Of a stretch of DNA of 64,000 nt, positions 4,500-46,732 are shown in pieces (the stretch's first letter is position 1; the number at the start of each line of letters is the position of its first letter). Below the pieces are notes generated by a model. That model searched no databases and had not been told where the DNA came from. It saw only the letters and a program-made list of their open reading frames with translations. The position numbers and the translations under genes were made by a program. Source of the stretch: Acidimicrobiia bacterium (GTDB taxonomy: Bacteria > Actinomycetota > Acidimicrobiia > Spongiisociales > JAHEDJ01); contig JARGFH010000007.1 in the NCBI GenBank assembly GCA_029210695.1, positions 1-64,000 on the forward strand, read 5' to 3'.

Positions 4500-5765
4500 A
4501 TGGCGAAGTTCAGTGAGGGTGGCGAACTCCTGAAGTGCAGTTTCTGCGGCAAGTCGCAGAAACAGGTTCGCAAGTTGATTGCCGGACCCGGCGTCTACAT
4601 CTGCGATGAGTGCATCGATCTCTGCAATGAGATCATCGAAGAGGAGTTCGCCGGCACCGAGGAACTGGACTTCACCGAACTGCCCAAACCGCAAGAAATC
4701 CTGACCTTCCTCGACGACTACGTCGTAGGTCAGGAACGGGCCAAGAGAGTCCTTTCGGTTGCCGTGTACAACCATTACAAGCGGGTGCGGGCCGGACTCC
4801 AACTTCGTGAAGACGTGGAACTACAGAAGTCGAACATCCTCCTCATTGGACCAACAGGATGTGGCAAGACGCTGCTCGCCCAGACGCTCGCCCGCATGCT
4901 CAACGTCCCCTTTGCGATCGCCGATGCGACTGCATTGACTGAAGCAGGGTATGTCGGCGAAGACGTCGAAAACATTCTGCTCAAGCTCATTCAGGCAGCC
5001 GACTACGACGTCAAGAAGGCGGAGACCGGAATCATCTATCTTGATGAGGTCGACAAGGTTGCCCGCAAAGCTGAGAACCCTTCAATAACACGAGACGTAT
5101 CTGGTGAGGGTGTGCAGCAGGCGCTGCTGAAGATCCTCGAGGGAACCGTGGCGGCCGTTCCGCCGCAGGGAGGGCGGAAGCACCCCCACCAGGAGTTCAT
5201 TCAGATCGACACGACAAACATACTATTCCTGTGCGGCGGCGCCTTCGCCGGACTCGAGGACATCATCGGAAACCGCGTCGGCAAACGTGCCATCGGATTC
5301 GGTGCCGACATACGGACGCGTGAAGAGGCCAACGGTTCTGAGCTGCTGGCGAAGGTTCTCCCGGAAGACCTCATGAAGTTCGGTTTGATTCCCGAGTTCA
5401 TCGGCCGCCTCCCAGTCGTGGCGACCGTCGACGAACTCGATCGAACGGCCTTGATCGAGATCCTCGAAGAGCCCAAGAACGCACTCACCAAGCAATATGC
5501 AAGGTTCTTCGAACTCGACGGTGTTGAACTGGAGTTCACGTCCGGGGCGCTCGAAGCGATCGCCGATCAGGCTTTGGGTCGGGGAACTGGGGCTCGCGGT
5601 TTGCGGGCGATTCTCGAAGAGGTCCTGCTCAATACCATGTTCGAGCTTCCCTCCAGGTCCGACATCGGCCGGGTCGTCATTGACGAGGGAGTCGTACGCG
5701 AACGAGTCAACCCGACACTTGTGCCGCTGGCTGAACTCGATGAACCGCAGGAGCGTTCGGCATAG
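4500..5765 (+). CDS. clpX: ATP-dependent Clp protease ATP-binding subunit ClpX
   Basis: CSFCGK zinc finger, GPTGCGKT Walker [18 protein letters not shown] loop. Confidence 0.98.
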
Positions 5766-6079
5766 CCGGCACAACGAAACCATGGCGGACGTAGGTCCAA
5801 AGGCCTATAGCCACGCCCCCCTTGATCTGGTTGAATGCAACCATGGAGAGTGAGGAAGGCGGGTGAGCTGGTCGCTGTTTTCAGCTGGTCTCAACGTCGG
5901 CCTGAACAGGGCACGCAGATGAGCATCTGTGGCTATCATGAGCGGCCGGCACGGCGAATAAGACTTTCCGGGGGCACGCAGCGTGGTGTCCTGAGGGGCT
6001 TGGGAAGCATCGACTCTAGATCCCAAGGCGTATACCTTGGATTTGGTTGAGAGAGCTAGTGATAGGCTTGCCACAGAAA

Positions 6080-6094
6080 GTCACATATTGTGAC
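6080..6094. promoter_or_regulatory. Palindromic operator GTCAC-N5-GTGAC (BldD-box-like)
   Basis: GTCAC-ATATT-GTGAC; same motif and GAAA flank recur at 10482. Confidence 0.45.
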
Positions 6095-6105
6095 AGGGGC
6101 GCAAT

Positions 6106-6180
6106 TTGGGAGGCATCGAACTTCAATCCGAAACTCGGTCACCTATGGATTGAAGCGAGCTAGTGGTGAGACCGGCCCCG
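6106..6180 (+). promoter_or_regulatory. c-di-GMP-II riboswitch aptamer 1
   Basis: GGGAGGCATCGAA-[CTTCAATCC..GGATTGAAG stem, CGGTCACC in loop]-CGAGCTAGTGGTGAGACCGGCC matches the c-di-GMP-II layout including the pseudoknot. Confidence 0.88.
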
Positions 6181-6211
6181 CCCCGTCACGAAAGTGAGGG
6201 GAGGCGGAGAA

Positions 6212-9200
6212 ATGAATAAGGGTCCGATTTCGAGGGCAGCCGGCATCGCCGTGCTTGCATTTCTGTTGGTTATTGGTTCGTTCCTGGTCGTCATGCCGGA
6301 GAGTGCCGACGCGGCGCTCGGCGGTCTCACAGGTTTTGAGATCGATGGCGATGTCGTTGCGTCCGGGGGTGTTGATTGGCAATCGTTGCCGAATTCTGCT
6401 GGGGTATTCGATCCTGGTGAAGTCTTGGTCATCAACGATCAGAACTTCACCGGTGCCCAGCTCGTCACGGATCCCTCCACTGCGGCCAACACGTATTGCA
6501 TCGGTGGTGACGACCTCATCGTGAAGAACGGCACCAAACTGACCGATTTCCCATTTGTGGCGGTAGACGGAAGTCCTGCTCCCGGAAAGAACGACATCTG
6601 TCAGACCTACGTTGCTTATGACGTGGTCCCGAACGCAGGTGTCAATGAAATCGTGCTTTACGTCGGCGTGATTCGGCGCGAAACAAATGGCACGACGGCC
6701 GTCGCCGTCGAACTCAACCGGATCGATCAAGCGCACCGCCAGTCGGGCGACCTCGTGATCTCGTTCGAGTTTGATGGAAACGGTCCTGTTGCGGTTGTGA
6801 ATATCCGAGAGTGGAACGGCTCAGGGTTTGACCTTACGGCCGTCGGAGGAACGAGCGCTGCTGAGGGCTACTCGACAGACCACTTCGGTGAGATTGCCGT
6901 CAACCTCACGGCTACCGGTATTCTGCCGCCCCCCGAAAACCCGGAGGATTGCTCGACGCTCGGCACGGTGCTTCCGTTTGGCTGGGCAGGTAACTCCGAT
7001 ACCTCGAATATTGGCGACTGGGGTGGTAGCGCCCCTCTCGGTCTCGACCTCTGCGGCAAACTGATCATTGAGAAGCAGACAAATCCGACAGGATCGACCG
7101 AAACGTTCGGATACTCGCTCTCGACGAGTGCTCCTTTCTCCCCGCTGACCGGTTCGCTCATCGGTGATGGTGATTCCTTCGAGTGGTTGCTCCCCGACGG
7201 CAATTACACCCTCGTGGAGGCCGACCCATTCGGCCTTGGGTGGGCATTCGATAACTATTCGTGTAACAACGGGGCATCAAGCGAAGATCGGGCGGCCGGC
7301 GTGACCGTTCCGGTGTCGCTGGGCACGACGATCACCTGCACCATCGAAAACGTCCAGCCGGCCATCTCGGTAACGAAGACGGCCGATCCCACGAGCGTGC
7401 CCGAAACAGGCGGCGACGTCACCTTCACGTTCCGGGTCGACAATACGGGTCCCGAAGCTGTATCCCTCACCGATCTCGTCGATTCGGTGTTCGGCGACCT
7501 GGACGGCCAGGGGAGTTGCGTTCTTCCGCAGGACCTCTCCATTGGCGGTTTCTATGAGTGCTCTCTGACTGTCTTCCTGGACTCTGACGACCTCGTCGAT
7601 CACTTCGACGAGGTCACGGCCACGGCTTTTGATGCAGCAGGTTTGACGGCAACGGCCACCGATGACGCAACCGTCACGTTCAACGATCTGTTGCCGACGG
7701 TTGGGTTGACGAAGTCGGCTGTGCCGTCGTCGTTGCCAGAACCTGGTGGTGATTTCGTCTTCACGTTGACGATTACGAATACGTCGGTGGAGCCGGTGAC
7801 GATCACTGATTTGTCGGATTCTCAATCTGGTGCGACGGACTTCTCGGCGTGTTCTGCGCTGGTGGGTTCTGTGCTGGCTGTGGACGCGACGGTTGAGTGT
7901 GAGTACACGGTTGCTCACAGCGAGGCTGGTTCTTATGACAACACGGCGTCGGTGACGGTCGAGGACAATGACGGCAACTCGGCGTCGGATGAGGCCGCTG
8001 AGACGGTCACGGTTGTCGATGTGTTGCCGACGGTGGAGTTGGCGAAGTCGGCTGTGCCGTCGTCGTTGCCAGAACCTGGTGGTGATTTCGTCTTCACGTT
8101 GACGATTACGAATACGTCGGTGGAGCCGGTGACGATCACTGATTTGTCGGATTCTCAGTCTGGTGCGACGGACTTCTCGGCGTGTTCTGCGCTGGTGGGT
8201 TCTGTGCTGGCTGTGGACGCGACGGTTGAGTGTGAGTACACGGTTGCTCACAGCGAGGCTGGTTCTTATGACAACACGGCGTCGGTGACGGTCGAGGACA
8301 ATGACGGCAACTCGGCGTCGGATGAGGCCGCTGAGACGGTCACGGTTGTCGATGTCCGGCCGTCTGTTGACTTGGTGAAGGATGCGTCGCCTGGTTCGTT
8401 GCCCGAACCGGGTGGTGACTTCACGTTCACGCTCACGATTTACAACACCACGGTTGAGCCGGTGCAGGTGACGGCGTTGTCTGATGATTACACGTTGCCG
8501 GCCGGTTGCACGGGCCTGGTTGGCCAGTGGATTCCGGTGGGCGGGAATCTGTCTTGTTCCTATACGGTGACACATACCGATGCTGGTTCGTATGACAACA
8601 CGGCGTCGGTAACGGTCGAGGACAATGAAGGCAACCCGGCGTCGGATACCGACGATGAGACCGTGACGGTCACGGATACGCCGATTGCGATCAGCATCCA
8701 GAAGACGGCCGATCCCCTGTTCCTCAACGAACCGGGCGGCACCTTCACCTACACCTTGACCATCACCAACCCGTCGCAGGAAGCGGTGGAGATCAAGGCT
8801 CTGACGGATTCCAATGCACTGTCGGCCGATTGTCTGAATCTGATCGGAGAGACACTCAACCCGGCGGGCGATGAAGGTGACAGCGTCTCATGCACGTACA
8901 CCGTCGACCACACGACACCCGGCGTATATGACAACGTCGCCACAGTGGTCGTCATGGACAATGAGGAGAACGAGGCAACCGACGATGACGATGCATCGGT
9001 CTCCGTGCTCGATGTGCCTTCGTCGATCCTCGTTACCAAGACACCCGGCGTCACTCAGATCGCAGAACCGGGCGGAACGGTGACGTTCACCGTCGTCGTT
9101 GAAAACACCAGCGAGACCGACATGCTGATCGTGGCATCGCTCGTCGACGATGTCTACGGTGACCTGAACGGTCAGGGTAACTGCACGGTTCCGCAGAAGC

Positions 9201-10312
9201 TCGCCGTCGGTGAGTCGTACACCTGCTCGTTCGATGGTGAGGTGCTCGGCAACGCCGGCGATTCTCATGTCAACGTCGTCACGGTCACGGCGGAAGATGA
9301 CGACGGCAACTTCATCGAGGATGACGACGATGCGACCGTCAATGTGACCGACGTCGCTTCAGGGATCTCGGTAACCAAGACTGCCGATCAGCCGGCGGTG
9401 CAAGAGCCGGGCGGGACCGTGACCTTCACCGTGGTCGTGCAGAACCCGAGCGCCGCCGATTCCGTGACGATTACGAGCATGGTCGACGACGTATTCGGTG
9501 ATCTCAACGGACTGGGCACCTGCTCGGTCCCGCAAGAACTCGCACCCGGTGCCAGCTACACCTGCAGTTTCGACGGCGAAGTCGCAGGGGAAGCCGGCAG
9601 TTCCGCCGATCCACATGTCAACACAGTGACGGTGGTCGGGATTGACGATGATGAGAACGAGGTCACCGACTCGGACGACGAAACCGTCGACATCACCGAG
9701 AAACCGACCGGTACGATCGGCGACTTCGTGTGGAACGACACCAGTGAGGATGGCATCCAGGACGCCGACGAGGTTGGTGTCGAGGGTGTGCTCGTCGAAC
9801 TCGTCGATGCCGACACCGGTGAGGTGATCGCCTCCATGACGACCGGCGCCGACGGAGCCTACGAATTCTCGGGTGTTGAAGAGGGTGACTACTTCGTGCG
9901 GTTCACGACTCCGAAGTCGTGGGAGTTTGGCCTCGTCGACGCGGGCGATGACGACTCTGTCGATAGCGATGCCGTCTTCAAGTCCGGGAGCGGCGAGAAG
10001 CAAGAGCACTTCGAGATCGCCGAGACACTTCCGTTCTCGCTCGCCGCCGGTGAAACGAACACCAGCTTCGATGCGGGAATGATCAAGATCTTCGTGTCGC
10101 CTCAGGTGATCACCACGACAACGACGACCACTACGGTGGCGACGACGACGATCTCGACGTTGCCGTTCACCGGGTTCGGTCAGGGTGACGTGGCGGGAAC
10201 CGCTCTCGTGCTGATCGTGCTGGGTGGATTCGTCTTGCTGGCCATGCGCCGGAGGGATGACCTCCTCGAGACTGCTGCGGCAGAGGCGCCGCATCCGGCC
10301 TGGGACGAATAG
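6212..10312 (+). CDS. Large LPXTG-type surface adhesin: signal peptide, repeated Ig/CnaB (DUF11-like) units, SdrD B-like domain, Thr-rich stalk, LPFTG, TM
   Basis: Repeated VTKTA..P...VTFT..V.NT units; IGDFVWND..EDGIQD; TTTTT..TLPFTG, hydrophobic helix, RRR. Confidence 0.85.
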   Translation: MNKGPISRAAGIAVLAFLLVIGSFLVVMPESADAALGGLTGFEIDGDVVASGGVDWQSLPNSAGVFDPGEVLVINDQNFTGAQLVTDPSTAANTYCIGGDDLIVKNGTKLTDFPFVAVDGSPAPGKNDICQTYVAYDVVPNAGVNEIVLYVGVIRRETNGTTAVAVELNRIDQAHRQSGDLVISFEFDGNGPVAVVNIREWNGSGFDLTAVGGTSAAEGYSTDHFGEIAVNLTATGILPPPENPEDCSTLGTVLPFGWAGNSDTSNIGDWGGSAPLGLDLCGKLIIEKQTNPTGSTETFGYSLSTSAPFSPLTGSLIGDGDSFEWLLPDGNYTLVEADPFGLGWAFDNYSCNNGASSEDRAAGVTVPVSLGTTITCTIENVQPAISVTKTADPTSVPETGGDVTFTFRVDNTGPEAVSLTDLVDSVFGDLDGQGSCVLPQDLSIGGFYECSLTVFLDSDDLVDHFDEVTATAFDAAGLTATATDDATVTFNDLLPTVGLTKSAVPSSLPEPGGDFVFTLTITNTSVEPVTITDLSDSQSGATDFSACSALVGSVLAVDATVECEYTVAHSEAGSYDNTASVTVEDNDGNSASDEAAETVTVVDVLPTVELAKSAVPSSLPEPGGDFVFTLTITNTSVEPVTITDLSDSQSGATDFSACSALVGSVLAVDATVECEYTVAHSEAGSYDNTASVTVEDNDGNSASDEAAETVTVVDVRPSVDLVKDASPGSLPEPGGDFTFTLTIYNTTVEPVQVTALSDDYTLPAGCTGLVGQWIPVGGNLSCSYTVTHTDAGSYDNTASVTVEDNEGNPASDTDDETVTVTDTPIAISIQKTADPLFLNEPGGTFTYTLTITNPSQEAVEIKALTDSNALSADCLNLIGETLNPAGDEGDSVSCTYTVDHTTPGVYDNVATVVVMDNEENEATDDDDASVSVLDVPSSILVTKTPGVTQIAEPGGTVTFTVVVENTSETDMLIVASLVDDVYGDLNGQGNCTVPQKLAVGESYTCSFDGEVLGNAGDSHVNVVTVTAEDDDGNFIEDDDDATVNVTDVASGISVTKTADQPAVQEPGGTVTFTVVVQNPSAADSVTITSMVDDVFGDLNGLGTCSVPQELAPGASYTCSFDGEVAGEAGSSADPHVNTVTVVGIDDDENEVTDSDDETVDITEKPTGTIGDFVWNDTSEDGIQDADEVGVEGVLVELVDADTGEVIASMTTGADGAYEFSGVEEGDYFVRFTTPKSWEFGLVDAGDDDSVDSDAVFKSGSGEKQEHFEIAETLPFSLAAGETNTSFDAGMIKIFVSPQVITTTTTTTTVATTTISTLPFTGFGQGDVAGTALVLIVLGGFVLLAMRRRDDLLETAAAEAPHPAWDE
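7691..8356 (+). repeat. Near-perfect 333-bp (111-aa) tandem duplication inside adhesin 1, followed by diverged copies
   Basis: TTGCCGACGG..GAAGTCGGCTGTGCCGTCGTCGTTGCCAGAACC starts at 7691 and again at 8024. Confidence 0.95.
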
Positions 10313-10335
10313 AACACGCCGATCAAGCGATGAGT

Positions 10336-10365
10336 TTGGGGCCCCGGAGCAATCCGGGGCCCCAA
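10336..10365 (+). terminator. Intrinsic terminator-like hairpin
   Basis: TTGGGGCCCCGGA-GCAA-TCCGGGGCCCCAA. Confidence 0.8.
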
Positions 10366-10481
10366 CTATTGGTCGTGTCTTGCCGACAGCACACCACGTT
10401 AGGTGGCAGACTAGTCACAAAGAATGAGACTTTGTCCATCCTTACGCATGGTCACACTGAGTGGTAGCGTCGACACTGAAA

Positions 10482-10496
10482 GTCACAACACGTGAC
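10482..10496. promoter_or_regulatory. Palindromic operator GTCAC-N5-GTGAC (BldD-box-like)
   Basis: GAAA-GTCAC-AACAC-GTGAC-A, about 15 nt before riboswitch 2. Confidence 0.45.
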
Positions 10497-10510
10497 ATGG
10501 GGCAACTGAA

Positions 10511-10586
10511 TAGGGAGGCGCTGACCTTCGACCCGCAATTCGGTCACCAATGGGTTGAAGCGAGCTGAGTGGTGAGACCGGCCCGC
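10511..10586 (+). promoter_or_regulatory. c-di-GMP-II riboswitch aptamer 2
   Basis: GGGAGGCGCTGAC-[CTTCGACCC..GGGTTGAAG, loop CGGTCACC]-CGAGCTGAGTGGTGAGACCGGCCC. Confidence 0.88.
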
Positions 10587-10621
10587 CCCATCCGTAGACG
10601 ACGGATGTGAGGAGCGGACAC

Positions 10622-13600
10622 ATGACCGAAGGCAATTCTCTGCGAGCAGCAGGCTATGGGGTGCTCGCATTCCTACTGGTAGCGGTCTCACTAGTGACGT
10701 TGCCTCCGCCGGCCCGGGCCGAGGGGAACATCAACTACTCGGACTACACCTTCTATTTCGCGAATGGAACGGTGTGGGAGGGGAACACGTGGGACGAGGG
10801 TGGCGGCAATAACGCCACAGTGCCGGCGAATTTCGGTGTTGGAAGCGCTCGAATCCTCCATGTCTCGTGCTCCGACACATTCAGCGATGGCTTCTCCGAC
10901 GATCCGGCTCCGCGGTTCCCGCTGGCATCAGATGGCACGAGTCAAGAGTGGAAGATTCTCTCGTATCACATCGACAAATACCAGTCGAAGAACGACGTCG
11001 TTCCGGGCGACATGACGAAGATCCAAGATTCATGCGGAGAGACCTTTGTTCCTGCGAGCATCACTGTTGTGAAGGACACTTTGCCCCTCACTTCGGATCC
11101 TTTTTCCTTTGAACTCGACGCGGTGATCGCCTCACCACCCTCGGCGCCTTCGTTTGTCAGCCCGTCTCTCCCCGACGACCGGAGCGTGTCCGGCGCGGGT
11201 GGCTCGTACACCTGGGGGAATCTGCTCGCAGGTTCATATACGCTCTCCGAGTTGATCGGCTCGAATCCTCCTGAGTACGAGTTCGCGTCCGTCGAGTGCA
11301 CGAACGGCGCCTCGAGCGCTGGAGTGCCTTCTGTCGCGTTCGGCCTCCACGGAGGTGAGCACGTCACCTGCACGTTCGTCAACCAGGCTGAAATCACGCT
11401 CATCCCCAACGTCGATATTGAGAAAGCGACGAACGGCGAAGATGCCGACACGGCGACCGGACCCGAGATCCCTATTGGTGATCCTGTCACCTGGACTTAT
11501 GTGGTCACGAATACCGGCGAATTGCCGTTGACCGGCGTCACCGTGATCGACAATCAGGGCGTTGCCGTTTGGTGTCCGCGAGGCACCCTCGGTGTTGGCG
11601 AATCGATGACCTGTACAGCCAGTGGCACTGCTGTGGAAGGCCAATACGCCAACTTGGGCACGGTTACCACCACTGAGGGTCCTTCGGATGAGGATCCGTC
11701 GCACTACTTCGGTCTGACCCCGGCCGTTGATATCGAGAAGGCCACGAATGGCTTTGACGCCGACGACCCACAAGGCCCCTGGTTGGTTGCAGGCAACGAT
11801 GTCACCTGGACGTATGTGGTCACAAACACAGGTGAACTGCCGTTGACCGGCGTGACGGTGACCGACGACGTTCTCGGTGCGATTTGTGAGATCGGTGAGC
11901 TGGCGATCGGCGCTTCTGATACCTGCACGGCCGCCGGCATTGCCACCATCGGCCAGTACGCCAACCTCGGTACCGTCACGACCGACGAGGGTGTCTCGGA
12001 CGAGGATCCCTCGCACTACTACGGGTTCATACCGGAGGAACCTGGGATCGATATCGAGAAGGCCACCAACGGCGAGGACGCCGACGACCCGACCGGTCCA
12101 TCCATTCTGGCCGGCGATCCCGTCACCTGGACCTACCTCGTGTCGAACACGGGCAACATTCAGCTGACGGGCGTGGAAGTCCTCGATGACCAGGGTGTTG
12201 CCGTCTCATGTCCGACTGACTCGCTCGACGTCGGCGAGTCGATGGAATGCACGGCCACCGGTACGGCGACGGTCGGCCAGTACTCCAACCTGGGTACCGT
12301 CACCACCGATCAAGAGGTCTCTGATGAGGATCCTTCTCACTACATCGGCTATGCAGTGGGATCGATCGGAGACTTCGTCTGGTTCGACCAGAACAAGAAC
12401 GGGATTCAGGACGGTGGTGAGCCGGGCGTTGCCGGCATCGACGTCTACCTCCACGAGGGTGAGGTATGCAGCGGCGAACCGATCGCACAGACGACGACCG
12501 ACGCTGACGGCCTCTACCTGTTCGACGGGTTGTTCGCCGGTACCTACTGCATCGAATTCCAGCTCCCATACGAGTATGCGTTCAGTCCGGCAGATCAGGG
12601 CGGCGACGGCGCACTCGATAGCGACGCTCCGACCGAGGTGGTCGTTCTCGCCGAAGGCGAAGACAACCTGAGCGTCGACGCCGGTCTCGTTGGTGGGGAT
12701 ATCACCTTGGAGAAGGAGACCGACGTCGCGACAGAAGAGACCTTCGGTTTTGACTTCAACGGGACGCAGGAGGTTGATCTGGGATCGGGTGGTTCGGCGA
12801 CCTTCCACGTGCCGGGCGGTGTGTACTCGATTACCGAGTTTGTAGCGCAAGGTTGGGAACTCGTCGAGGTTCAGTGCGGAGACATCGAAGCCGACATCGA
12901 TCTCACCGGTGGAAACGTCACGTTGTTCGTGCCGCCGGGCGGCTCGGTCGGTTGCACCTTCCTGAACCATGAGATTCAAGAGCCAGTGGGTCTCATCGGA
13001 GACTTCGTGTGGAAGGACACGGACGGTGACGGTGTTCAGGACGAGGGTGAACCCGGTATCGCCGGTGTGAAGGTGGAGTTGTTCGACGCGGAAACGGACG
13101 AGTCGGCCGGCTCGACCAACACGGATGCAGACGGCATTTACGTGTTCGGCAACGTTGCGGCTGGCGACTACTACCTGCTGTTCACCGGCCCGGTCGACTG
13201 GGAGTTCACACTGGCGGACGAAGGGTCGGACGATGCAGCCGACAGCGATGCAGACGCTCTGGACCCGGAAGCCAACCCGCAGATCGGGCGAACGGCGGTG
13301 TTCGCGCTCGGCGCAGGGGTCGCAGATCTTTCCCGTGACGCCGGGCTGATCTTCGTTGAGGTGTTCCCTCAGGTCATAACAACGACGACGACTACCACTG
13401 CGCCACCGACGACGACTACAACCACCGTGCCGCCGGCCACAACGACGACCACGGTGGCCGACACGACTGTAGAAACATTGCCGTTCACCGGGTTCGGTGA
13501 GGGAGGAATGGGCAGCCTCGGCTTTGCACTCATCGTTCTGGGCGGGCTCGTGCTGATGGCAGTCAGCCGAAAGGAAACCGACCTGGAAGTCGTATCGGAG

Positions 13601-13630
13601 GAGGCGCCGGCGAGGTCCTGGGAGGACTAA
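10622..13630 (+). CDS. LPXTG-type surface adhesin: repeated Ig-like units, two SdrD B-like domains, Thr stalk, LPFTG
   Basis: Three DIEKATNG.DAD repeats; IGDFVWFDQNKNGIQD and IGDFVWKDTDGDGVQD; ETLPFTG, TM, RK. Confidence 0.85.
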   Translation: MTEGNSLRAAGYGVLAFLLVAVSLVTLPPPARAEGNINYSDYTFYFANGTVWEGNTWDEGGGNNATVPANFGVGSARILHVSCSDTFSDGFSDDPAPRFPLASDGTSQEWKILSYHIDKYQSKNDVVPGDMTKIQDSCGETFVPASITVVKDTLPLTSDPFSFELDAVIASPPSAPSFVSPSLPDDRSVSGAGGSYTWGNLLAGSYTLSELIGSNPPEYEFASVECTNGASSAGVPSVAFGLHGGEHVTCTFVNQAEITLIPNVDIEKATNGEDADTATGPEIPIGDPVTWTYVVTNTGELPLTGVTVIDNQGVAVWCPRGTLGVGESMTCTASGTAVEGQYANLGTVTTTEGPSDEDPSHYFGLTPAVDIEKATNGFDADDPQGPWLVAGNDVTWTYVVTNTGELPLTGVTVTDDVLGAICEIGELAIGASDTCTAAGIATIGQYANLGTVTTDEGVSDEDPSHYYGFIPEEPGIDIEKATNGEDADDPTGPSILAGDPVTWTYLVSNTGNIQLTGVEVLDDQGVAVSCPTDSLDVGESMECTATGTATVGQYSNLGTVTTDQEVSDEDPSHYIGYAVGSIGDFVWFDQNKNGIQDGGEPGVAGIDVYLHEGEVCSGEPIAQTTTDADGLYLFDGLFAGTYCIEFQLPYEYAFSPADQGGDGALDSDAPTEVVVLAEGEDNLSVDAGLVGGDITLEKETDVATEETFGFDFNGTQEVDLGSGGSATFHVPGGVYSITEFVAQGWELVEVQCGDIEADIDLTGGNVTLFVPPGGSVGCTFLNHEIQEPVGLIGDFVWKDTDGDGVQDEGEPGIAGVKVELFDAETDESAGSTNTDADGIYVFGNVAAGDYYLLFTGPVDWEFTLADEGSDDAADSDADALDPEANPQIGRTAVFALGAGVADLSRDAGLIFVEVFPQVITTTTTTTAPPTTTTTTVPPATTTTTVADTTVETLPFTGFGEGGMGSLGFALIVLGGLVLMAVSRKETDLEVVSEEAPARSWED

Positions 13631-13652
13631 CAACGGCGGGAGGAAGGCAACG

Positions 13653-13680
13653 CTGGGCCCCGGAGTTCTCCGGGGCCCAG
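13653..13680 (+). terminator. Intrinsic terminator-like hairpin
   Basis: CTGGGCCCCGGA-GTTC-TCCGGGGCCCAG. Confidence 0.8.
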
Positions 13681-13744
13681 TTGCGCGATAGGGCCGGAGG
13701 CCCATTGTGTGAGGCCGTACTCAATGAGAAGATGAAACCTGGCT

Positions 13745-13814
13745 CGGGAGGCCGTGACCCCCAGTCCGAGAACGGTCACCGGGATTGGGGTGAGCCAATG
13801 GTGAGACCGGCCCG
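13745..13814 (+). promoter_or_regulatory. c-di-GMP-II riboswitch aptamer 3
   Basis: GGGAGGCCGTGAC-[CCCCAGTCC..GGATTGGGG, loop CGGTCACC]-TGAGCCAATGGTGAGACCGGCCC. Confidence 0.85.
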
Positions 13815-13840
13815 CATAACATCCCGAAAGGGAGGGAGAG

Positions 13841-15775
13841 ATGCGGAACGGTTTGTCACGTTCATCTGGCGGTATCGCGGTTCTTGCTTTCCTTCTGGTT
13901 GCTTTGACGTTCGTTCTAGTGGGCCCACTTGAGGCCGGAGCAACCTCTGACGGTGGAGAGCATCGTCCACCGGCCGGGTGTGTGAAGCTCGAAGATCCCA
14001 ACGACATCCCGTCGACGACCGAGGTCGCGTTGGCGAATGGGGTGACCGTCACATTTGATTGGACGACCAAGCCATCTGAGGCCGGGGAATGGATCGGCTT
14101 CGAATGGTCCGCAGTCGGCGGATCTGCATACGGGACTGTCAAGGCGTCGACCGAGGTCTACGACTGGGGACCGAGTCAAACGGGGACCTTTCTCGTGCCG
14201 GACGATGAGAACGGGCGAGTTCACGCGATCTCCTATGTGATCGTGTGCGGCGAACCGCTGCCGCACGGTTCGATCACCGTCATCAAGGATGCCGTGCCGG
14301 ACGCCGCAGATACACCCTTCGGCTTCGTGCTCGATGGCCTCGACGATCCGGTCGAGTTCGAACTGATCGACGATGGGGAATCTCCCGGCCTGGCGGCGAG
14401 AACTTTCGATGAGCTTTCGCCGGGAACCTACGCCGTCGGTGAGACGGCCCTCCCGGAAGGCTGGGACCTCACGGACATCGATTGCGGGGAAGCAGACGTA
14501 TCGGTCGATGGCGATGCAGTGTTCATCGAACTCGAGGATGGAGATCAGGTGGTCTGCGTCTTCACCAATGAGAGGGAAGAGGAGATCGATCTCGGCTCGA
14601 TTACCGTGATCAAGACGACGTCACCTGAGACTGCACAGGAGTTCCTCTTCACGCTCGAGCCGGGCGATTACCAACCGGTCGCAGGGAACGGAGGCACGTA
14701 TACGTGGGCCGGTCTCGAGGCCGGCACATACAACCTGTTCGAAACACTGACCGAAGCGCAGAGTGCAGACGGCTGGCATCTCGAAACGGTCGAATGCGAC
14801 AACGAGGATGATCCGGACGCAATCACGCTCGAGGCCGGGGGCGACGTCGTTTGCACGTTCGACAACCACCAGACCGTCGACTTCGTGCTCGAGAAACTGA
14901 CGAACGTCGAGAGCCAGGACGAGTTCAGCTTCGAGCTCGACGGTGTTGCACTGGTCGATCTCGCCGGGGGAGAGACCTTCGAGACCGTCCTCGAAGAAGG
15001 CACGTACACGGTTACGGAACTGATCGTCGACGGATGGGACCTGTTCAGCATCGTTTGTACCGGAGCGGAAAGCACTGTTGACATTGCCGCGGCCAGCGTT
15101 GAGTTGCTCCTGCTACCGGGTGCCGACGTGCGCTGCACGTTCGTCAACAATGAGGAGGCGGCCGAGCTGGGCGTAATCGGTGATTATGTCTGGCACGATG
15201 CCGACGAGGAGGGCGACCAGGATGGTGACGAGCAGCCGCTGGCTGGGATTCAGGTTGACCTCCTGGACTCGAACGGCCGAGCCATCGCATCAACGAAAAC
15301 CGATGTGCTGGGTCTGTATAGCTTCTTCAACGTTCCGGAAGGTGACTACCGGGTTCGGTTCCACGGTCCGACAGGTTGGACATTTACGAAACGCGACGCG
15401 GCGGCGGACGCGATCGACAGCGATGCGCTCGTTGCCGACAAGAAAGCTGATCCGCAGATCGGCGAGACCGACCTGTTTCACTTGAATGCCGGCGCAGTCG
15501 ATCTGTCTCGTGATGCCGGCCTCTTTGGTGAAACCAGGGTGCTCCCGCAAGTGATCACCACAACAACCACAGCAGCCACAGCAACCACAACGACGATTGC
15601 GTCCGCGTCCACGACAGCAGAGACCTTGCCTTTCACCGGGGCACCCGAAGCCCCAAGTCTCATCGGGTTGGCGACGGCGCTGCTGGCGCTGGGACTGATG
15701 GCGGTTCTCGCCATCAAACGGAGGGAGGATCTGCCGGTAACCGGGTGGTCGCAGCGGCTGCGCGACACCTACTGA
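13841..15775 (+). CDS. LPXTG-type surface adhesin: pilin/prealbumin-like Ig units, SdrD B-like domain, LPFTG
   Basis: GSITVIK...CVFTN units; IGDYVWHDAD; ETLPFTG, TM, KRR. Confidence 0.85.
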   Translation: MRNGLSRSSGGIAVLAFLLVALTFVLVGPLEAGATSDGGEHRPPAGCVKLEDPNDIPSTTEVALANGVTVTFDWTTKPSEAGEWIGFEWSAVGGSAYGTVKASTEVYDWGPSQTGTFLVPDDENGRVHAISYVIVCGEPLPHGSITVIKDAVPDAADTPFGFVLDGLDDPVEFELIDDGESPGLAARTFDELSPGTYAVGETALPEGWDLTDIDCGEADVSVDGDAVFIELEDGDQVVCVFTNEREEEIDLGSITVIKTTSPETAQEFLFTLEPGDYQPVAGNGGTYTWAGLEAGTYNLFETLTEAQSADGWHLETVECDNEDDPDAITLEAGGDVVCTFDNHQTVDFVLEKLTNVESQDEFSFELDGVALVDLAGGETFETVLEEGTYTVTELIVDGWDLFSIVCTGAESTVDIAAASVELLLLPGADVRCTFVNNEEAAELGVIGDYVWHDADEEGDQDGDEQPLAGIQVDLLDSNGRAIASTKTDVLGLYSFFNVPEGDYRVRFHGPTGWTFTKRDAAADAIDSDALVADKKADPQIGETDLFHLNAGAVDLSRDAGLFGETRVLPQVITTTTTAATATTTTIASASTTAETLPFTGAPEAPSLIGLATALLALGLMAVLAIKRREDLPVTGWSQRLRDTY

Positions 15776-15790
15776 TTCTCACTACCTATA

Positions 15791-15822
15791 GAGAGCCCCG
15801 GTCCACCATGGCCGGGGCTCTC
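15791..15822 (+). terminator. Intrinsic terminator-like hairpin
   Basis: GAGAGCCCCGGTC-CACCAT-GGCCGGGGCTCTC. Confidence 0.75.
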
Positions 15823-15896
15823 GCTCGTTGCGAATACCGGCCCGACTCGTGTCCAGCGTTCGTACAATGGCGATTCGCGATTGAGATGAAGGTGCA

Positions 15897-18494
15897 ATGG
15901 AAGCGACCTACGACCCCAAAACCGTGGAGGCCGACTGGTACGACCGGTGGGAGCAAGCGGGGGTGTTCCGTCCGGAACACAACCCGGACGGCGTGCCTTT
16001 CTGCATCGTCATTCCACCCCCCAACGTGACCGGGTCGCTGCATATGGGTCACGCCCTGAACCACACCATTCACGACGCCATCATCCGTCGGCGCCGCATG
16101 CAGGGGTTCGCGGCCCTCTGGTTGCCCGGCACCGACCACGCCGGCATCGCCACCCAGAACGTGGTCGAGCGGGAAATGGCCACAGAAGGGCTCACCCGGC
16201 ACGACGTCGGTCGCGACGCGTTCATCGAGCAGGTGTGGGAATGGAAGCGTCAGTACGGCAACCGAATCTCGCTCCAGATGCGCGCCCTTGGCGACTCCGT
16301 GGACTGGACGCGTGAGCGTTTCACCATGGACGAGGGTCTGTCGCGCGCCGTTAGAGAGGTATTCGTTCGCCTCTTCGAGGAAGACCTGATCTACCGGGGA
16401 GACCGGATCATCAACTGGTGCCCGCGGTGCGGAACGGCACTGGCTGAGATCGAGGTCGAATACGACGATGAGATGGGCGAACTCGCCCACATCACCTACC
16501 CATTCGTGGACGGCGAAGGGGGGATTACGGTTGCAACAACCAGAGCGGAGACGATGCTGGGTGACACGGCGGTGGCCGTGCATCCCGACGACGAACGCTA
16601 CCGGCACCTGATCGGCAAGAAACTGCTGTTGCCGCTCCTGGGGAGGGAGATCCCGGTCATCGCCGACGAGTTCGTCGACCGGGAGTTCGGAACCGGAGCG
16701 GTCAAGGTGACCCCTGCCCACGATCCGAACGACTTCGATATGGGGCAACGGCACGGCCTGGAGTCGATCAAGATCCTCGACGAGCGAGCCGTGATCACTG
16801 AGGCCGGCGGCGAGTTCTTCGGCATGGACCGGTTCGAGGCGCGAGAAGCCGTGAAGCATGAACTCCACAAGCGGGGTTACCTCGAGAAGGTGGAGACCCA
16901 CGAACACTCAGTTGGACACTGCTACCGGTGTTCCACCGTAGTCGAGCCGTACCTCTCGCTCCAATGGTTCGTGAAGGTGCGTCCGCTGACCGAACCGGCC
17001 ATCGACGTCGTGCGGACGGGCGATACCAGGTTCGTCCCGAAGCGGTGGGAGAAGAATTACTTCCACTGGATGGAGAACCTGAGGGACTGGTGCATCAGCC
17101 GCCAAATCTGGTGGGGCCATCGGATCCCCGCCTGGTACTGCGATGCCTGTCATGAGACCATCGTGGCCCGGCAGGACCCCACGGAGTGCACGAACTGTGG
17201 CCGAACCGACCTCCGCCAGGACAATGATGTGCTCGACACTTGGTTCTCTTCAGCTTTGTGGCCGTTCTCGACGCTCGGCTGGCCGGATGAGACGGCCGAT
17301 CTCGACCGGTTCTACCCCAATGCGGTGCTCATCACCGGGTTCGACATCATCTACTTCTGGGTTGCCAGGATGATGCAAATGGGCATCCACTTCATGAAGG
17401 ATGTCCCGTTCGCCGACACGGTCATACACGGTCTCGTCAGAGACGCAAGCGGGAGAAAGATGTCGAAGTCGATCGGGAATGCCATCGACCCCCTCGACGT
17501 GATCGAAGAACACGGCGCGGACCCGCTGCGCCTGGCGCTCATTCAGTCGGCCGCGCCGGGCCACGACGTCCCATTCGATATGGAATGGGTGGTAGGTGCC
17601 CGCAAGTTCGGCAACAAACTCTGGAACGCGCAGCGGTTTGCCGGGCTCCACATCGAGCGTGGCTCGGTACCGGCGGATGGTGGCTATCCGGACGATCCCG
17701 GCCCTGCCGACCGCTGGATCCTCGCCCGGCTGGGTGAGGTGCAGCGCCGGTTCGATGAGCTCGCGGATGAATATCGATTCTCGGATGCCTTCGGCCTCCT
17801 CTATAACTTCGCCTGGTCGGAAGTGTTCGACTGGTACATAGAGATGTCGAAGGCGCCCCTCCGTGACGAGGAGCGGGCGGCAACGACCCGGCAAACGCTC
17901 GGCACCGTGCTTCGGGACGTGCTGAAGCTATTTCATCCGGCCATCCCGTTTCTGACGGAAGAACTGTGGTCGGAACTGGTAGCCGACGGACTCCTGGCCG
18001 GATCGAAGTGGCCGGAGCCTCCGGAGATCGAAGCACCGGCCAATCTCGAGACCTTCCAGGAACTCATCACAGGAATTCGCCGCTTCCGGGCCGAACATGG
18101 TCTTGCTCCCCGCGCCGGGCTGGCGTTGAAACTCCTCGATCCTGAAGGAGTCGTCGAGGACTGGTGGATCGAACAGATCGAGGCTCTGGCTGGTGCAACA
18201 CATGAGCCGATTACTCAGAAACCAACCGCCGGACATACCCGGGTAGTGGCCGGGAGCGTGCAGGCGTTCATCCCTCTCGAAGGGAACGTCGACCTCGACG
18301 CCGAACGGAACCGGCTGGCCAAAGCGATTGAGGCCACCTCGGCCGACCTCGCCAAAGCTGAGACGAAGCTCTCGAATCCAGCGTTTCGCGATCGGGCACC
18401 CACCGAAGTTGTGACAAAGGAAGAAGAGAAGGCATCAGAATTCCGCGGGCGGCTCGACAAGCTCCGCACCCAGCTCGCCGAACTCGGAAGCTAG
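15897..18494 (+). CDS. valS: Valine--tRNA ligase
   Basis: PPPNVTGSLHMGH, DWCISRQIWWGH, KMSKS. Confidence 0.98.
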   Translation: MEATYDPKTVEADWYDRWEQAGVFRPEHNPDGVPFCIVIPPPNVTGSLHMGHALNHTIHDAIIRRRRMQGFAALWLPGTDHAGIATQNVVEREMATEGLTRHDVGRDAFIEQVWEWKRQYGNRISLQMRALGDSVDWTRERFTMDEGLSRAVREVFVRLFEEDLIYRGDRIINWCPRCGTALAEIEVEYDDEMGELAHITYPFVDGEGGITVATTRAETMLGDTAVAVHPDDERYRHLIGKKLLLPLLGREIPVIADEFVDREFGTGAVKVTPAHDPNDFDMGQRHGLESIKILDERAVITEAGGEFFGMDRFEAREAVKHELHKRGYLEKVETHEHSVGHCYRCSTVVEPYLSLQWFVKVRPLTEPAIDVVRTGDTRFVPKRWEKNYFHWMENLRDWCISRQIWWGHRIPAWYCDACHETIVARQDPTECTNCGRTDLRQDNDVLDTWFSSALWPFSTLGWPDETADLDRFYPNAVLITGFDIIYFWVARMMQMGIHFMKDVPFADTVIHGLVRDASGRKMSKSIGNAIDPLDVIEEHGADPLRLALIQSAAPGHDVPFDMEWVVGARKFGNKLWNAQRFAGLHIERGSVPADGGYPDDPGPADRWILARLGEVQRRFDELADEYRFSDAFGLLYNFAWSEVFDWYIEMSKAPLRDEERAATTRQTLGTVLRDVLKLFHPAIPFLTEELWSELVADGLLAGSKWPEPPEIEAPANLETFQELITGIRRFRAEHGLAPRAGLALKLLDPEGVVEDWWIEQIEALAGATHEPITQKPTAGHTRVVAGSVQAFIPLEGNVDLDAERNRLAKAIEATSADLAKAETKLSNPAFRDRAPTEVVTKEEEKASEFRGRLDKLRTQLAELGS

Positions 18495-18500
18495 CCGGTG

Positions 18501-19796
18501 ATGAACTACCGGGAAGCGGTCGACTTCCTCGATGCCCATATCGGCCAGGGCGTGCAGCCCGGATTGGATCGCGTTCGGGCACTGATGGACATGATGGGGG
18601 ACCCCCAACTGGCCGCGCCGGTGATCCATTTGACCGGCAGCAACGGCAAGACATCAACCGCCCGGATGATCACGTCGTTGCTCATCGCCCACGGGTTGCG
18701 GGTTGGAACGTTCATCTCTCCACATCTCGAGAAGATCGAGGAACGACTCGCCCTCGACGGGGTCTACGCCACCGAGGATGAGTTTGCCGAGGCAGTGGCC
18801 GACATCGTCCCGTTCGTCCAGTTATTCGAAGAGCGCACCGGACAAACGCCGACCTACTTCGAACTCACCGCCGCGCTGGCTTTCTCCTATTTCGCCGTCA
18901 ACGCCGTCGATGTCGCGGTCGTCGAGGTCGGACTCGGCGGACGGCTCGACGCCACCAACATCGTCGACAGCCGGGTGGCGGTCGTGACCGGAATCTCCCT
19001 CGAGCATACGTCGTGGCTGGGCAACTCGATTGAGGAGATAGCCATCGAGAAGCTGGCCATTGCCAAGGAATCGTCGGTGCTAATCACCGGTTCGCTGCCC
19101 GAGGAAGCATATGCGGTGGCCTCCGCCCGGGCCGGGAGCCTCGGAATTGTGCACCGACGTTTCGGGGCCGAATTCCATCCTGAGTTCGTCACCATGGCGG
19201 TCGGGGGCTGGGCCGGCTCGGTGAGCGGGGTGTACGAGACCTACGATGAACTGCTTCTCCCTCTGCACGGTCGCCACCAGTTCGACAACCTGGCCGTGGC
19301 GATTGCCGCAGTTGAAGAGCTCACCGGGCGGGCGCTGGACCTGGACGCCGTGCGCGAAGGCACGGCGTCGGCAACCTCTCCCGGGCGCCTTGAAGTTGTT
19401 GGGCGGAGGCCGCTGATCTTGCTGGACGGTGCGCACAACACCCAGGCCTTCGAGCTGTTGTCGGAGGCGCTAGCCACCGAATTCCTGCCGGAGGAGTGGG
19501 TCGTTGTCATTGGAGCAATGGGAGACAAAGATCTCGAAGCGATGATCCGGAACCTCGAGGGTCAGGTGTCGGCCGTGGTGGCAACCTCCGTTGACTACGA
19601 GCGCGCCATTCCGGCCGATCGGGTGGCGAAGATCGCTTCGGCGACCCTCGATGTGCCGGTGGAGACTGTCGTCGGCATTCCGCCCGCGCTCGAGGCGGCC
19701 CGCCGGCTGGCCGGGACGGATGGTGCGATCCTGGTGACCGGCTCACTGTACGTAGTGGGGGAGGCGCGCAGCGCGCTACTCCATCCGTCGAGCTGA
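18501..19796 (+). CDS. folC: Folylpolyglutamate synthase / dihydrofolate synthase
   Basis: HLTGSNGKTS, EVGLGGRLDATN, LDGAHN, GSLYVVG. Confidence 0.95.
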   Translation: MNYREAVDFLDAHIGQGVQPGLDRVRALMDMMGDPQLAAPVIHLTGSNGKTSTARMITSLLIAHGLRVGTFISPHLEKIEERLALDGVYATEDEFAEAVADIVPFVQLFEERTGQTPTYFELTAALAFSYFAVNAVDVAVVEVGLGGRLDATNIVDSRVAVVTGISLEHTSWLGNSIEEIAIEKLAIAKESSVLITGSLPEEAYAVASARAGSLGIVHRRFGAEFHPEFVTMAVGGWAGSVSGVYETYDELLLPLHGRHQFDNLAVAIAAVEELTGRALDLDAVREGTASATSPGRLEVVGRRPLILLDGAHNTQAFELLSEALATEFLPEEWVVVIGAMGDKDLEAMIRNLEGQVSAVVATSVDYERAIPADRVAKIASATLDVPVETVVGIPPALEAARRLAGTDGAILVTGSLYVVGEARSALLHPSS

Positions 19797-26736: not shown

Positions 26737-27038
26737 CCGTGCGGTGATTTGGTGCTAGCCTACGGGTGCGACCGCGAGCGGTCGTGAGTTTAAGGACGCG
26801 ACCTCCTTCAAGGGGTCTTCCCCGTCGATCCCGGCAGAGTCTCGAGGCGTACGAACCTCAGAACCCCTAGGACCATCCGGACTCGACGGCAGGGTATAGG
26901 TGTATGCCCGCTCTCCCATGACCACCTGAACAGGAGAGCCGGCTGAGGTGCCGCACGGATCACCGTGGGGCAGAGGTCGGAACCCCGGACTCGTTCGCTC
27001 GCACAGTGAGTAGTGAAGACCGGAAGGATACGAGTTTC

Positions 27039-31783: not shown

Positions 31784-32338
31784 TCAATCCTCGAGCCGTT
31801 GTTGGCGCCTGCGTTGGCGGGCATGCTGAAGAAGCACGCCGCCGGCCACGGCGGCCAGTATCACTCCGATCGCTCCCAATGGACCTGTAGCTTCCGAGGG
31901 CAGGTGATAGCCCGGTTCGACGAGTTCGAGACTTGTCACTGCGATGTACGTCTCCCCCGTTCGGTCGGGGTCGTGATAGCGGAACTCGCCCGTTGCGGAC
32001 ACGATCGGGCCGCGCCACCGATATCCGCCCGGTTGCTCGACGGCGGCCATCTCTTCGAAGAGCTCGGGCGGCACCCGCAGGGTTACGCCGACGTTGGCCC
32101 CGGCGAGGAGGCCGGTCTCGAGCAGCGGATGTGTGGCGTAGGGGTCGTCGTTGATCTGGAGCCAGAATGCGCCCGAATGCCGGCCGAAGTCGCCGACGAG
32201 TTCCCCCGTGACTTCTACAACGCGACCGGACCATTCGTCGGGACTCGACAGAATCTCGGCGATCTCCGTCGCTCCTGCCGGAGACTGTAGTCCGGCGACC
32301 AGAGCCATAGTCATGAAGGCGGTGATGATTCCCTTCAT
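31784..32338 (-). CDS. Secreted, membrane-anchored OB-fold-like protein at the end of the Trk operon
   Basis: Signal peptide, V.VTGELVGD..W..I.D beta pattern, C-terminal TM plus basic tail; ATGA overlap with trkH. Confidence 0.6.
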   Translation of the reverse strand: MKGIITAFMTMALVAGLQSPAGATEIAEILSSPDEWSGRVVEVTGELVGDFGRHSGAFWLQINDDPYATHPLLETGLLAGANVGVTLRVPPELFEEMAAVEQPGGYRWRGPIVSATGEFRYHDPDRTGETYIAVTSLELVEPGYHLPSEATGPLGAIGVILAAVAGGVLLQHARQRRRQQRLED

Positions 32339-33828: not shown

Positions 33829-33829
33829 G

Positions 33830-33964
33830 TCACAGAATCCATGTCACGATCCATGCGAGGAGAACGGCAGCCGCCAGCAGAGATACCAGTATCGCAACCT
33901 CGACCAGCACACCGGCCAGTCCACCGATTGCATACTGCAACGCTCTTCGACGTCTCCTAGCCAT
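33830..33964 (-). CDS. 44-aa membrane microprotein (absent from the ORF track)
   Basis: MARRRRRALQYAIGGLAGVLVEVAILVSLLAAAVLLAWIVTWIL; overlaps the trkA stop and ends 1 nt before the trkH start. Confidence 0.7.
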   Translation of the reverse strand: MARRRRRALQYAIGGLAGVLVEVAILVSLLAAAVLLAWIVTWIL

Positions 33965-34721: not shown

Positions 34722-34723
34722 GG

Positions 34724-35380: not shown

Positions 35381-35467
35381 GATGTCTGCTTTCTCATGAA
35401 TGGTGATGATACGACGAAAGAGTCGCGAGTCGCGAGCCGCGAGATTGTGGCTGAGGCTTCGGACTTG

Positions 35468-38286: not shown

Positions 38287-38369
38287 TCGCCGACCGCGCC
38301 TCCCTGAGGTAGCTCGACAGGGTAGTACCGGCCAAGTGCCGGGACGGGCCGAACTACACTCCGGCCGGA

Positions 38370-46625: not shown

Positions 46626-46702
46626 GGGGCTGTAGCTCAGCTTGGCAGAGCACTTGCATGGCATGCAAGGGGTCAGGGGTTCAAATCCCCTCAGCTCCAC
46701 CA
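46626..46702 (+). tRNA. tRNA-Ala(GGC)
   Basis: GGGGCTGTAGCTCAG...CTTGC-ATGGCAT-GCAAG...GGTTCAAATCCC...CTCCACCA. Confidence 0.96.
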
Positions 46703-46704
46703 CC

Positions 46705-46732
46705 GAAAACCCCTGTAAATACAGGGGTTTTC
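46705..46732. terminator. Hairpin between tRNA-Ala and the convergent integrase
   Basis: GAAAACCCCTGT-AAAT-ACAGGGGTTTTC. Confidence 0.75.

Follow-up and report, generated by a model that had tools for sequence, protein, structure and literature searches.

Why should three neighbouring genes for wall-anchored surface proteins each carry an RNA sensor of its own, and what would such sensors detect? The question is raised by a block between clpX and valS in an Acidimicrobiia bacterium (GenBank assembly GCA_029210695.1, contig JARGFH010000007.1), of which positions 1 to 64,000 of the forward strand were analysed (the window, 64 kb). We found that the three genes, here called A, B and C, are each preceded by an aptamer of the Rfam family RF03169. 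In our reading, to which we give a probability of about 0.6, these are three separate cis-acting c-di-GMP-II-GAG riboswitches, each controlling one sortase-anchored secreted surface protein, and translation would be turned on by the ligand, most likely cyclic diguanosine monophosphate (c-di-GMP).

Three RF03169 aptamers and their surface-protein genes

Rfam cmscan over the whole window returned exactly three riboswitch matches, and the remaining matches were seven tRNAs. All three riboswitch matches belong to RF03169, cover its model in full length (positions 1-86 of 86) and lie above its gathering score of 40 bits. RF03169 is the c-di-GMP-II-GAG riboswitch aptamer, a named variant in CL00127, the c-di-GMP-II clan. 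A preliminary description of this DNA had called the elements c-di-GMP-II aptamers and had proposed a covariance-model search. With that search run, at 57-66 bits against the cut-off of 40, the assignment holds for the clan and fails for the canonical family RF01786, which was not the best-scoring clan family for any of the three aptamers. RF03169 was kept as the best clan member in all three cases, and lower-scoring clan matches including RF01786 were suppressed without their margin being given. The aptamer class is already catalogued, and the window reveals no new kind of RNA. The features of the block and its boundaries are as follows.

4500-5765, + strand: clpX, the upstream boundary (NCBIfam ClpX equivalog, 665 bits; Pfam)
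6023-6040, + strand: terminator-like hairpin with a T-rich tail, 3' of clpX (terminator scan)
6080-6094, + strand: inverted repeat GTCAC-N5-GTGAC upstream of aptamer A (read in the sequence)
6100-6185, + strand: aptamer A, core 6108-6178 (RF03169, 61.2 bits, E 1e-9)
6179-6211, + strand: predicted expression platform A, with anti-Shine-Dalgarno (anti-SD) CGCCCC (6179-6184), a small hairpin and Shine-Dalgarno (SD) sequence AGGGGAGGCGGA (6197-6208) (folds)
6212-10312, + strand: gene A, 1366-aa LPFTG surface protein with five DUF7507, three DUF11 and one SdrD_B domain (Pfam, translation)
10333-10367, + strand: GC-rich hairpin 3' of gene A, -31.0 kcal/mol, z -5.9, no T-run
10482-10496, + strand: inverted repeat GTCAC-N5-GTGAC upstream of aptamer B (read in the sequence)
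10505-10592, + strand: aptamer B, core 10513-10584 (RF03169, 57.0 bits, E 1.2e-8)
10585-10621, + strand: predicted expression platform B, with anti-SD in GCCCCAT (10585-10591), a hairpin and SD GUGAGGAGCG (10607-10616) (folds)
10622-13630, + strand: gene B, 1002-aa LPFTG surface protein with three DUF7507, two SdrD_B and SpaA-type domains (Pfam, translation)
13652-13681, + strand: GC-rich hairpin 3' of gene B, -29.7 kcal/mol, z -4.6, no T-run
13738-13821, + strand: aptamer C, core 13746-13813 (RF03169, 65.7 bits, E 7.1e-11)
13814-13840, + strand: predicted expression platform C, CCGCAU with AUGCGG (start codon) and UCCC with GGGA (SD) (folds)
13841-15775, + strand: gene C, 644-aa LPFTG surface protein with two SpaA_4, one SpaA_2 and one SdrD_B domain (Pfam, translation)
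15791-15822, + strand: GC-rich hairpin 3' of gene C, -30.1 kcal/mol, z -5.2, no T-run
15897-18494, + strand: valS, the downstream boundary (NCBIfam valine-tRNA ligase, 1171 bits)
18498-19796, + strand: folC, directly after valS (NCBIfam FolC)

The three same-strand LPFTG genes fill the interval between clpX and valS, each with its own aptamer and its own 3' hairpin. The elements described earlier, three LPFTG genes each with an upstream motif, were all found in place. The motif is about 70 nt long and consists of GGGAGGC..GA, a 9-bp stem with CGGTCACC in the loop, and GAGC..TGGTGAGACCGGCCC. It folds into helices P1, P2 and P3, and the P3 loop CGGUCACC forms a pseudoknot with the 3' tail (GGUG-AG-ACCG). 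The junction nucleotides are all identical among the three aptamers; the 9-bp P3 stem differs, with three pairs changed on both sides (T-A to C-G) and two changed to G-T wobbles. The three stem sequences quoted in the preliminary description are correct, and the covariation it read from them is real.

P1 (6096-6110 with 6176-6184 in A, 10497-10515 with 10582-10591 in B) is bipartite, with an inner GGG/CCC part and an outer G-rich/C-rich part. The two parts are separated by an A-rich bulge of 4-9 nt on the 5' side, between the G-rich outer strand and GGG, as in most relatives; the 3' side in the window copies and in relatives is CCY followed by a C-rich stretch. In aptamer A the outer 5' strand is GGGGCG at 6096-6101, and the pairing GGGGCG/CGCCCC appears in the fold with the core enforced; in aptamer B the pairing of ATGGGGC with GCCCCAT appears in the constrained fold. 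The helices, the pseudoknot and the GAG positions are those of the RF03169 model, but Rfam models P1 as a single continuous 11-bp helix, whereas P1 of the window aptamers and of their relatives is bipartite, and in each window aptamer 5-6 of these 11 pairs carry a non-standard flag. The visible part of the Rfam entry gives no expression platform, cargo or synteny. The canonical c-di-GMP-II structure contains a kink-turn.

Proteins A, B and C have an N-terminal signal peptide, a Thr-rich linker, the LPFTG sequence, about 20 hydrophobic residues and a charged tail (RRRDD, SRKE or KRRED), which together make up an LPXTG-type sortase sorting signal. Between the two ends lie tandem Ig-like/prealbumin-like Pfam modules of the DUF7507, DUF11, SdrD_B, SpaA, SpaA_2 and SpaA_4 families. 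The three proteins are modular paralogues: identity is 46% between A and B over the C-terminal 220 aa and 38% between B and C over 296 aa. Within gene A, a tandem repeat (7684-8464; 333 bp, 2.3 copies, 92% matches) amounts to a nearly exact doubling of one entire DUF7507-type module and points to a stalk that expanded recently.

The signal peptide, the tandem Ig-like/prealbumin-like domains and the LPxTG sequence are common to proteins A-C and the MSCRAMM/SdrD-type and SpaA-type surface proteins of Gram-positive bacteria. The DUF11 and DUF7507 repeats are an extra in the window proteins compared with these types, and no pilin motifs or sortase gene were found close to the window genes. A protein-atlas search with the N-terminal parts of A and B gave MSCRAMM/SpaA-type leads only, in Actinomycetota MSCRAMM clusters (0.92 for A, 0.88 for B). 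Orthology to SdrC or SdrD was considered and rejected: the NCBIfam whole-protein models (NF000535, NF012181) score 54-110 bits against cut-offs of 1700 and 2500, and only the B-repeat region matches.

Conservation of the aptamer and of its place after clpX

Relatives were sought by a DNA pattern scan of the genomes of 185,579 species, which gave at least 127 stretches, with flanks for 80; 126 loci were fetched. All counts for relatives given here are lower bounds and hold among the matches listed. A covariance model, R1, was built from the three window copies. Beyond these copies it gave 105 matches across 99 loci and 18 across the remaining 27, and 98 of the 126 loci were positive. By taxon label, R1 matched 39 of 41 loci from Acidimicrobiia, 8 of 9 from Coriobacteriia, 27 of 34 from other Actinomycetota, 15 of 17 from Chloroflexota and none of 12 from Proteobacteria. 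Rfam was run on 18 of the relatives' loci, and all 22 riboswitch matches were RF03169.

As none of the 12 proteobacterial loci (L001, L007, L008, L027, L065, L067, L080, L092, L106, L107, L121 and L122) matches the covariance model, they were treated as chance look-alikes and not as aptamers. The flanks of L001, L007 and L008 have in common a conserved stretch unlike the aptamer, which is probably coding sequence.

The structure of P1, P2, P3 and the pseudoknot is strongly supported by covariation across 98 relatives. In an alignment of 98 distinct sequences, which was fitted to our own model and so favours the structure, 95.5% of cells are paired. The figure falls to 77.7% on shuffling the columns, with none of 500 shuffles attaining 95.5%, and to 33-44% on sliding the partners. 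Changes on both sides are seen at 15 of 23 pairs, and at all nine pairs of P3. For the pseudoknot, in which the loop CGGUCRCC meets the tail GGYG-AG-ACCG, 98.9% of cells are paired; a single pair varies (65 sequences with A-U, 22 with G-C, one with another combination), and there the search pattern had left both sides free so that four combinations were possible.

The place of the aptamer is conserved as well. In 18 relatives' loci, most of them labelled Acidimicrobiia, one to three aptamer-LPxTG cassettes follow directly after clpX, with the first aptamer starting 112-318 nt after that gene. ClpX is 75-81% identical to that of the window in 17 of these loci and 70% identical over a contig-end fragment in the other (L075). 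Eleven of the loci extend as far as the next housekeeping gene (folC in ten, valS in one); they hold one cassette in five cases, two in five and three in one. The clpX/valS synteny that had been proposed as a check is present in its clpX-cassette part, with folC as the usual next gene. The closest of the listed loci, L006, shares with the window the order tRNA cluster-tig-clpP-clpX-aptamer-LPMTG protein-valS, which by itself makes an Acidimicrobiia-like actinobacterium the most likely host. The window block is one instance of a slot clpX-(aptamer-LPxTG gene)x1-3-(valS)-folC that is conserved in Acidimicrobiia. Riboswitch control of adhesins had been described as unusual for an actinobacterium, which these 18 loci contradict.

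All 20 complete open reading frames (ORFs) downstream of aptamers in the syntenic loci end in LPFTG or LPMTG, and six more run off contig ends. These proteins are barely alignable with those of the window (at most 41% identity over parts); the cargo turns over within a conserved slot and behind a conserved sensor. Over the whole set of relatives, an LPxTG end is found in 31 of 61 complete downstream ORFs (Acidimicrobiia 16 of 23, Chloroflexota 0 of 15). A hydrophobic, signal-like start is present in 76 of 95 downstream ORFs, including most of those that lack LPxTG, and many of the Chloroflexota ORFs have signal peptides. The cargo without LPxTG includes PKD plus SLH domains, FG-GAP/cadherin-like domains, multicopper oxidase plus malectin, DUF642 and ice-binding-like proteins, and two aptamers precede family-2 (GT2) glycosyltransferases (L056:5113-6210, L022:4118-4969).

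Four records labelled Acidobacteriota (L016, L045, L066 and L126) carry the same aptamer. Three of them (L016, L045 and L066) have the order clpX-aptamer-LPFTG-folC and a ClpX 77-79% identical to that of the window, like the Acidimicrobiia loci, and the taxon labels of the four records may not fit these contigs.

Mapped binding pocket and predicted expression platforms

In the c-di-GMP-II structure 3Q3Z, the first A-U pair of P2 lies beneath the ligand backbone, and A61, the adenine after that pair, forms the ceiling of the pocket (PMC13715770). A69 reads G-alpha of c-di-GMP by its sugar edge with three hydrogen bonds, A70 intercalates between the ligand bases, G73 reads G-beta, and the floor is the non-canonical pair topping P1 (PMC13715770). 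We mapped these positions onto the window aptamers by counting from the ceiling adenine after P2 (A55 in core numbering), which assumes no insertion or deletion relative to 3Q3Z. By this mapping, G63-A64-(N2)-G67 in all three aptamers aligns with A69-A70-(N2)-G73. Among the sequences matched by the model only, G63 is present in 12 of 12, and A64 and G67 each in 11 of 12.

The window aptamers thus have the three-way junction of P1, P2 and pseudoknot, the ceiling adenine after P2, the intercalating adenine and the guanine that reads the second base in common with canonical c-di-GMP-II (RF01786; 3Q3Z). They differ from it in two respects: the canonical G-alpha-reading A69 is replaced by G63 in all three, according to the counted mapping, and the pair that opens P2, canonically A-U, is here G-U or G-C. 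The mapped floor is A4 with G68. The family name GAG would refer to positions G63, A64 and G67, and the finding of G-A-G at the mapped positions fits that name. With G63 in the place of A69, c-di-GMP is not established as the ligand by the pocket itself; we hold it to be the most likely one because of the association with surface-protein genes. By analogy, the ligand is likely to be a cyclic dinucleotide. It had also been suggested that divergent aptamers could give each adhesin its own ligand threshold, but the binding cores are identical, and only the stems and the expression platforms differ.

The distance from aptamer to start codon is 27-37 nt in the three cassettes, and a terminator scan found no T-run hairpin between aptamer and start codon. 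With such a short gap and no T-run hairpin, control of translation is the simplest reading. On its 3' side P1 has a C-rich strand with complementarity to the SD region 15-30 nt downstream. In the unconstrained folds, CGCCCC pairs with GG..GGCG of the SD in copy A, CCGCCCC with GG.GCGG in copy B, and CCGCAU with the start codon AUGCGG in copy C. When the aptamer core is enforced, the outer P1 forms unprompted in A and B, and the SD becomes more accessible, its probability of being unpaired going from 0.46 to 0.70 in A and from 0.40 to 0.68 in B. This complementarity between the P1 3' strand and the ribosome-binding site suggests, as modelled, a ligand-ON translational switch for copies A and B and not for C. 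The same layout is predicted in 61 of 89 relatives, in which 4 bp or more form between the P1 3' strand and the ribosome-binding site.

Without ligand, the P1 3' strand would pair with the SD (in copy C, with the start codon) and translation would be low. Ligand binding would close P1 and withdraw the anti-SD strand, and the freed SD would allow ribosome loading. A rise of the messenger would then switch on the modular Ig-repeat surface proteins, for attachment or aggregation. The ON direction agrees in sign with the adhesin riboswitches of Clostridioides difficile.

At their 3' ends the genes carry GCCCCGG/CCGGGGC inverted repeats, which fold into the hairpins listed above. These were rejected as canonical intrinsic terminators, since they have no U-tract and are absent from the terminator-scan list; the hairpin 3' of clpX (6023-6040) is the sole gene-end hairpin of the region that the scan accepted. 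Of the self-contained cassettes described earlier, the own aptamer and own 3' hairpin stand, and the hairpin as a canonical terminator does not. A separate transcription unit for each cassette is likely.

Upstream of A and B, some 45 nt align closely, and this stretch contains a TAnnnT hexamer (TAGGCT in A and TAGCGT in B, at aligned positions) and the inverted repeat GTCAC-N5-GTGAC; the region of C differs and lacks the repeat. CAC-N5-GTG occurs in the 65 nt before 32 of 100 distinct aptamers, compared with 1 of 78 and 0 of 78 control stretches. The general form, RYCAC-N5-GTGRY, sits 25-40 nt upstream of the aptamer core (for example in L037, L071, L016, L029 and L052), and some pairs between its arms are compatible only as G-U or are mismatched. 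The repeat could be an RNA hairpin or a DNA operator, and it may add a second, protein-mediated layer of control. It resembles the BldD box, TNAC-N5-GTNA; BldD is a regulator that binds c-di-GMP.

Some other genes of the window were noted. The region 53314-55743 encodes a protein of 809 aa that combines a class III adenylate/guanylate cyclase domain at its N-terminus, the only nucleotide-cyclase domain of the window, with PQQ/BamB-like beta-propeller repeats. Upstream of it, 46626-53206 has the appearance of an integrated mobile element. After a tRNA (46626-46699) come a minus-strand tyrosine recombinase (46815-47909) and several ORFs without a family, and the region includes an AbiEii-type toxin domain (51296-52015) and a 299-aa ORF (52307-53206) that matches only positions 120-352 of the 353 of a group II intron reverse transcriptase/maturase profile. 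On the minus strand at 32335-38439, two TrkH and three TrkA-type genes in a row form an unusually dense potassium-uptake cluster.

Weighing the readings, and their meaning for the cell surface

Several points weigh against c-di-GMP-responsive ON switches of adhesins. The adhesive function is read from domain families and architecture. In the pocket as mapped, a G stands in place of the adenine that makes three hydrogen bonds to G-alpha, and the paper defining the GAG variant reportedly left its ligand open. No GGDEF, EAL, HD-GYP or diadenylate cyclase gene was found in the 64-kb window (NCBIfam, Pfam), nor any sortase family match (NCBIfam on 52 ORFs, Pfam on 23 ORFs), and a GGDEF/EAL protein is encoded by none of the 94 downstream ORFs of relatives. 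Copy C has no predicted switch, its AUG being unpaired with a probability of 0.01, and of 0.08 with the core enforced. In relatives, the P1 3' strand and the ribosome-binding site form 5.6 pairs on average compared with 3.97 after shuffling (Wilcoxon p 2.5e-5), which speaks for the switch, but the shuffled control is weak, as any G-rich ribosome-binding site tends to pair with a C-rich strand. The folds model neither the pseudoknot nor the ligand, and for that reason the ON direction is one that we infer. Finally, a promoter scan found no sigma-70 consensus in 5700-16000 and the three gene-end hairpins have no U-tract, so that the independent transcription of the cassettes is likewise a conclusion from their layout.

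On the side of c-di-GMP, a PAS-GGDEF-EAL gene lies 3 kb from an aptamer in the Acidimicrobiia locus L047, and a GGDEF gene adjoins the cassette in L036, which weakly suggests that c-di-GMP signalling exists in these lineages. A crude motif screen for cyclic-dinucleotide enzymes and sortases had given 37 candidates, of which nine were tested by Pfam and three confirmed as GGDEF; none of the four sortase candidates was confirmed.

The same architecture could serve another ligand, with the GAG pocket sensing a related nucleotide or a cyclic dinucleotide other than c-di-GMP, for example, 3',3'-cyclic GMP-AMP (3',3'-cGAMP), cyclic di-AMP (c-di-AMP) or an unknown messenger, so that the surface proteins would obey a different signal; we regard this as possible but doubtful. 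In its favour, G63-A64-(N2)-G67 occurs in all three copies at the mapped place of A69, which reads G-alpha by its sugar edge, and G63 is invariant in the 12 model-only sequences. Slight alterations are enough to change what this scaffold binds: one engineered c-di-GMP-II variant recognises 3',3'-cGAMP at 11 nM, and exchanging the first P2 pair alters its isomer selectivity (PMC13715770). The count of 0 of 94 for downstream GGDEF/EAL genes points the same way. Against another ligand, association with surface or anchored proteins is the classical output of c-di-GMP, and GGDEF and EAL genes do lie close to aptamers in the two relatives named above. Moreover, the G-beta-reading position (G67) and the intercalating A64 are unchanged, and the substitution itself presumes a mapping without insertions or deletions relative to 3Q3Z and a family name that lists those three positions. 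The 2017 paper that defined such variants is said to have proposed that they might recognise other signalling molecules. A search for a ligand test of c-di-GMP-II-GAG found none in the searchable literature, where the variant appears only as a listed Rfam model. That absence, together with the conserved upstream inverted repeat as a possible protein-binding site, would also suit a conserved structured leader that binds no small molecule, such as a protein-binding or mRNA-stabilising element. We consider such a leader highly improbable, however, since the near-invariant junction nucleotides (GA, GAGC, A55, A62-G63-A64) around the three-way junction and pseudoknot are the signature of a ligand pocket and coincide with the pocket of the solved homologue.

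As to the direction of control, the RNAs might be ligand-OFF switches, or might act mainly on transcription or mRNA decay through access of Rho or RNase E. In copy C the start codon is paired in both modelled states, in copy A closure of P1 leaves the SD partly covered by the small hairpin, and the shifts in SD accessibility are moderate, from about 0.4 to 0.7. An RNase E gene is present in the window (27006-28574), but without any link to these leaders. The lack of a T-run terminator-like hairpin between aptamer and start codon argues against this view, as does the pairing of the P1 3' strand with the ribosome-binding site in 61 of 89 relatives, an arrangement that fits an ON switch; in C. 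difficile, too, the riboswitches of the adhesin genes are of the ON type. OFF control or an action on decay is therefore unlikely in our estimation, and we retain translational ON switches as the reading of the block.

The parallel with C. difficile, drawn in the preliminary description, stands. In C. difficile, c-di-GMP-II riboswitches precede the sortase substrates or adhesins CD2831 and CD3246, the production of which is stimulated by high c-di-GMP (PMC11477304), and in Paraclostridium tandem c-di-GMP-II riboswitches precede COG4932 surface-anchor genes (PMC9481103). In these systems as in the window, a cyclic-dinucleotide riboswitch stands before LPXTG-type adhesin genes, to be turned on at high messenger. 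Those two are Firmicutes with the canonical aptamer, whereas the window is from Acidimicrobiia and has the variant; Paraclostridium has several aptamers in series before one gene, whereas the window has one per gene and three genes in a row. The window also differs in its very short leader and apparent control of translation. In full-text literature we found nothing joining c-di-GMP riboswitches with Acidimicrobiia, or 'c-di-GMP-II riboswitch' with Actinobacteria, a search whose scope excluded subscription papers and the supplements of the 2017 variant paper, which may describe it. The earlier reading was right in kind, and is in part supported here: a riboswitch of the cyclic-dinucleotide type is placed on each of three sortase-substrate genes.

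The three paralogous riboswitches, with identical cores and differing stems and platforms, are a natural test set for the ligand of the variant class, and the LPxTG cargo in 20 of 20 cases in syntenic Acidimicrobiia-type loci points to remodelling of the surface or to attachment as the biology in which that ligand acts. Tentatively, the GAG pocket may even be retuned to another cyclic dinucleotide or an unknown messenger, with the conserved inverted repeat perhaps adding protein-mediated control. If it is retuned, a dedicated and fast-evolving slot for sortase substrates between clpX and valS/folC would, in Acidimicrobiia and neighbouring lineages, be under the control of a distinct second messenger. 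With either messenger, the order clpX-(aptamer-surface protein)x1-3-folC suggests how a poorly studied and largely uncultured actinobacterial class regulates its cell surface, and the block is evidence for a surface-protein regulon in Acidimicrobiia.

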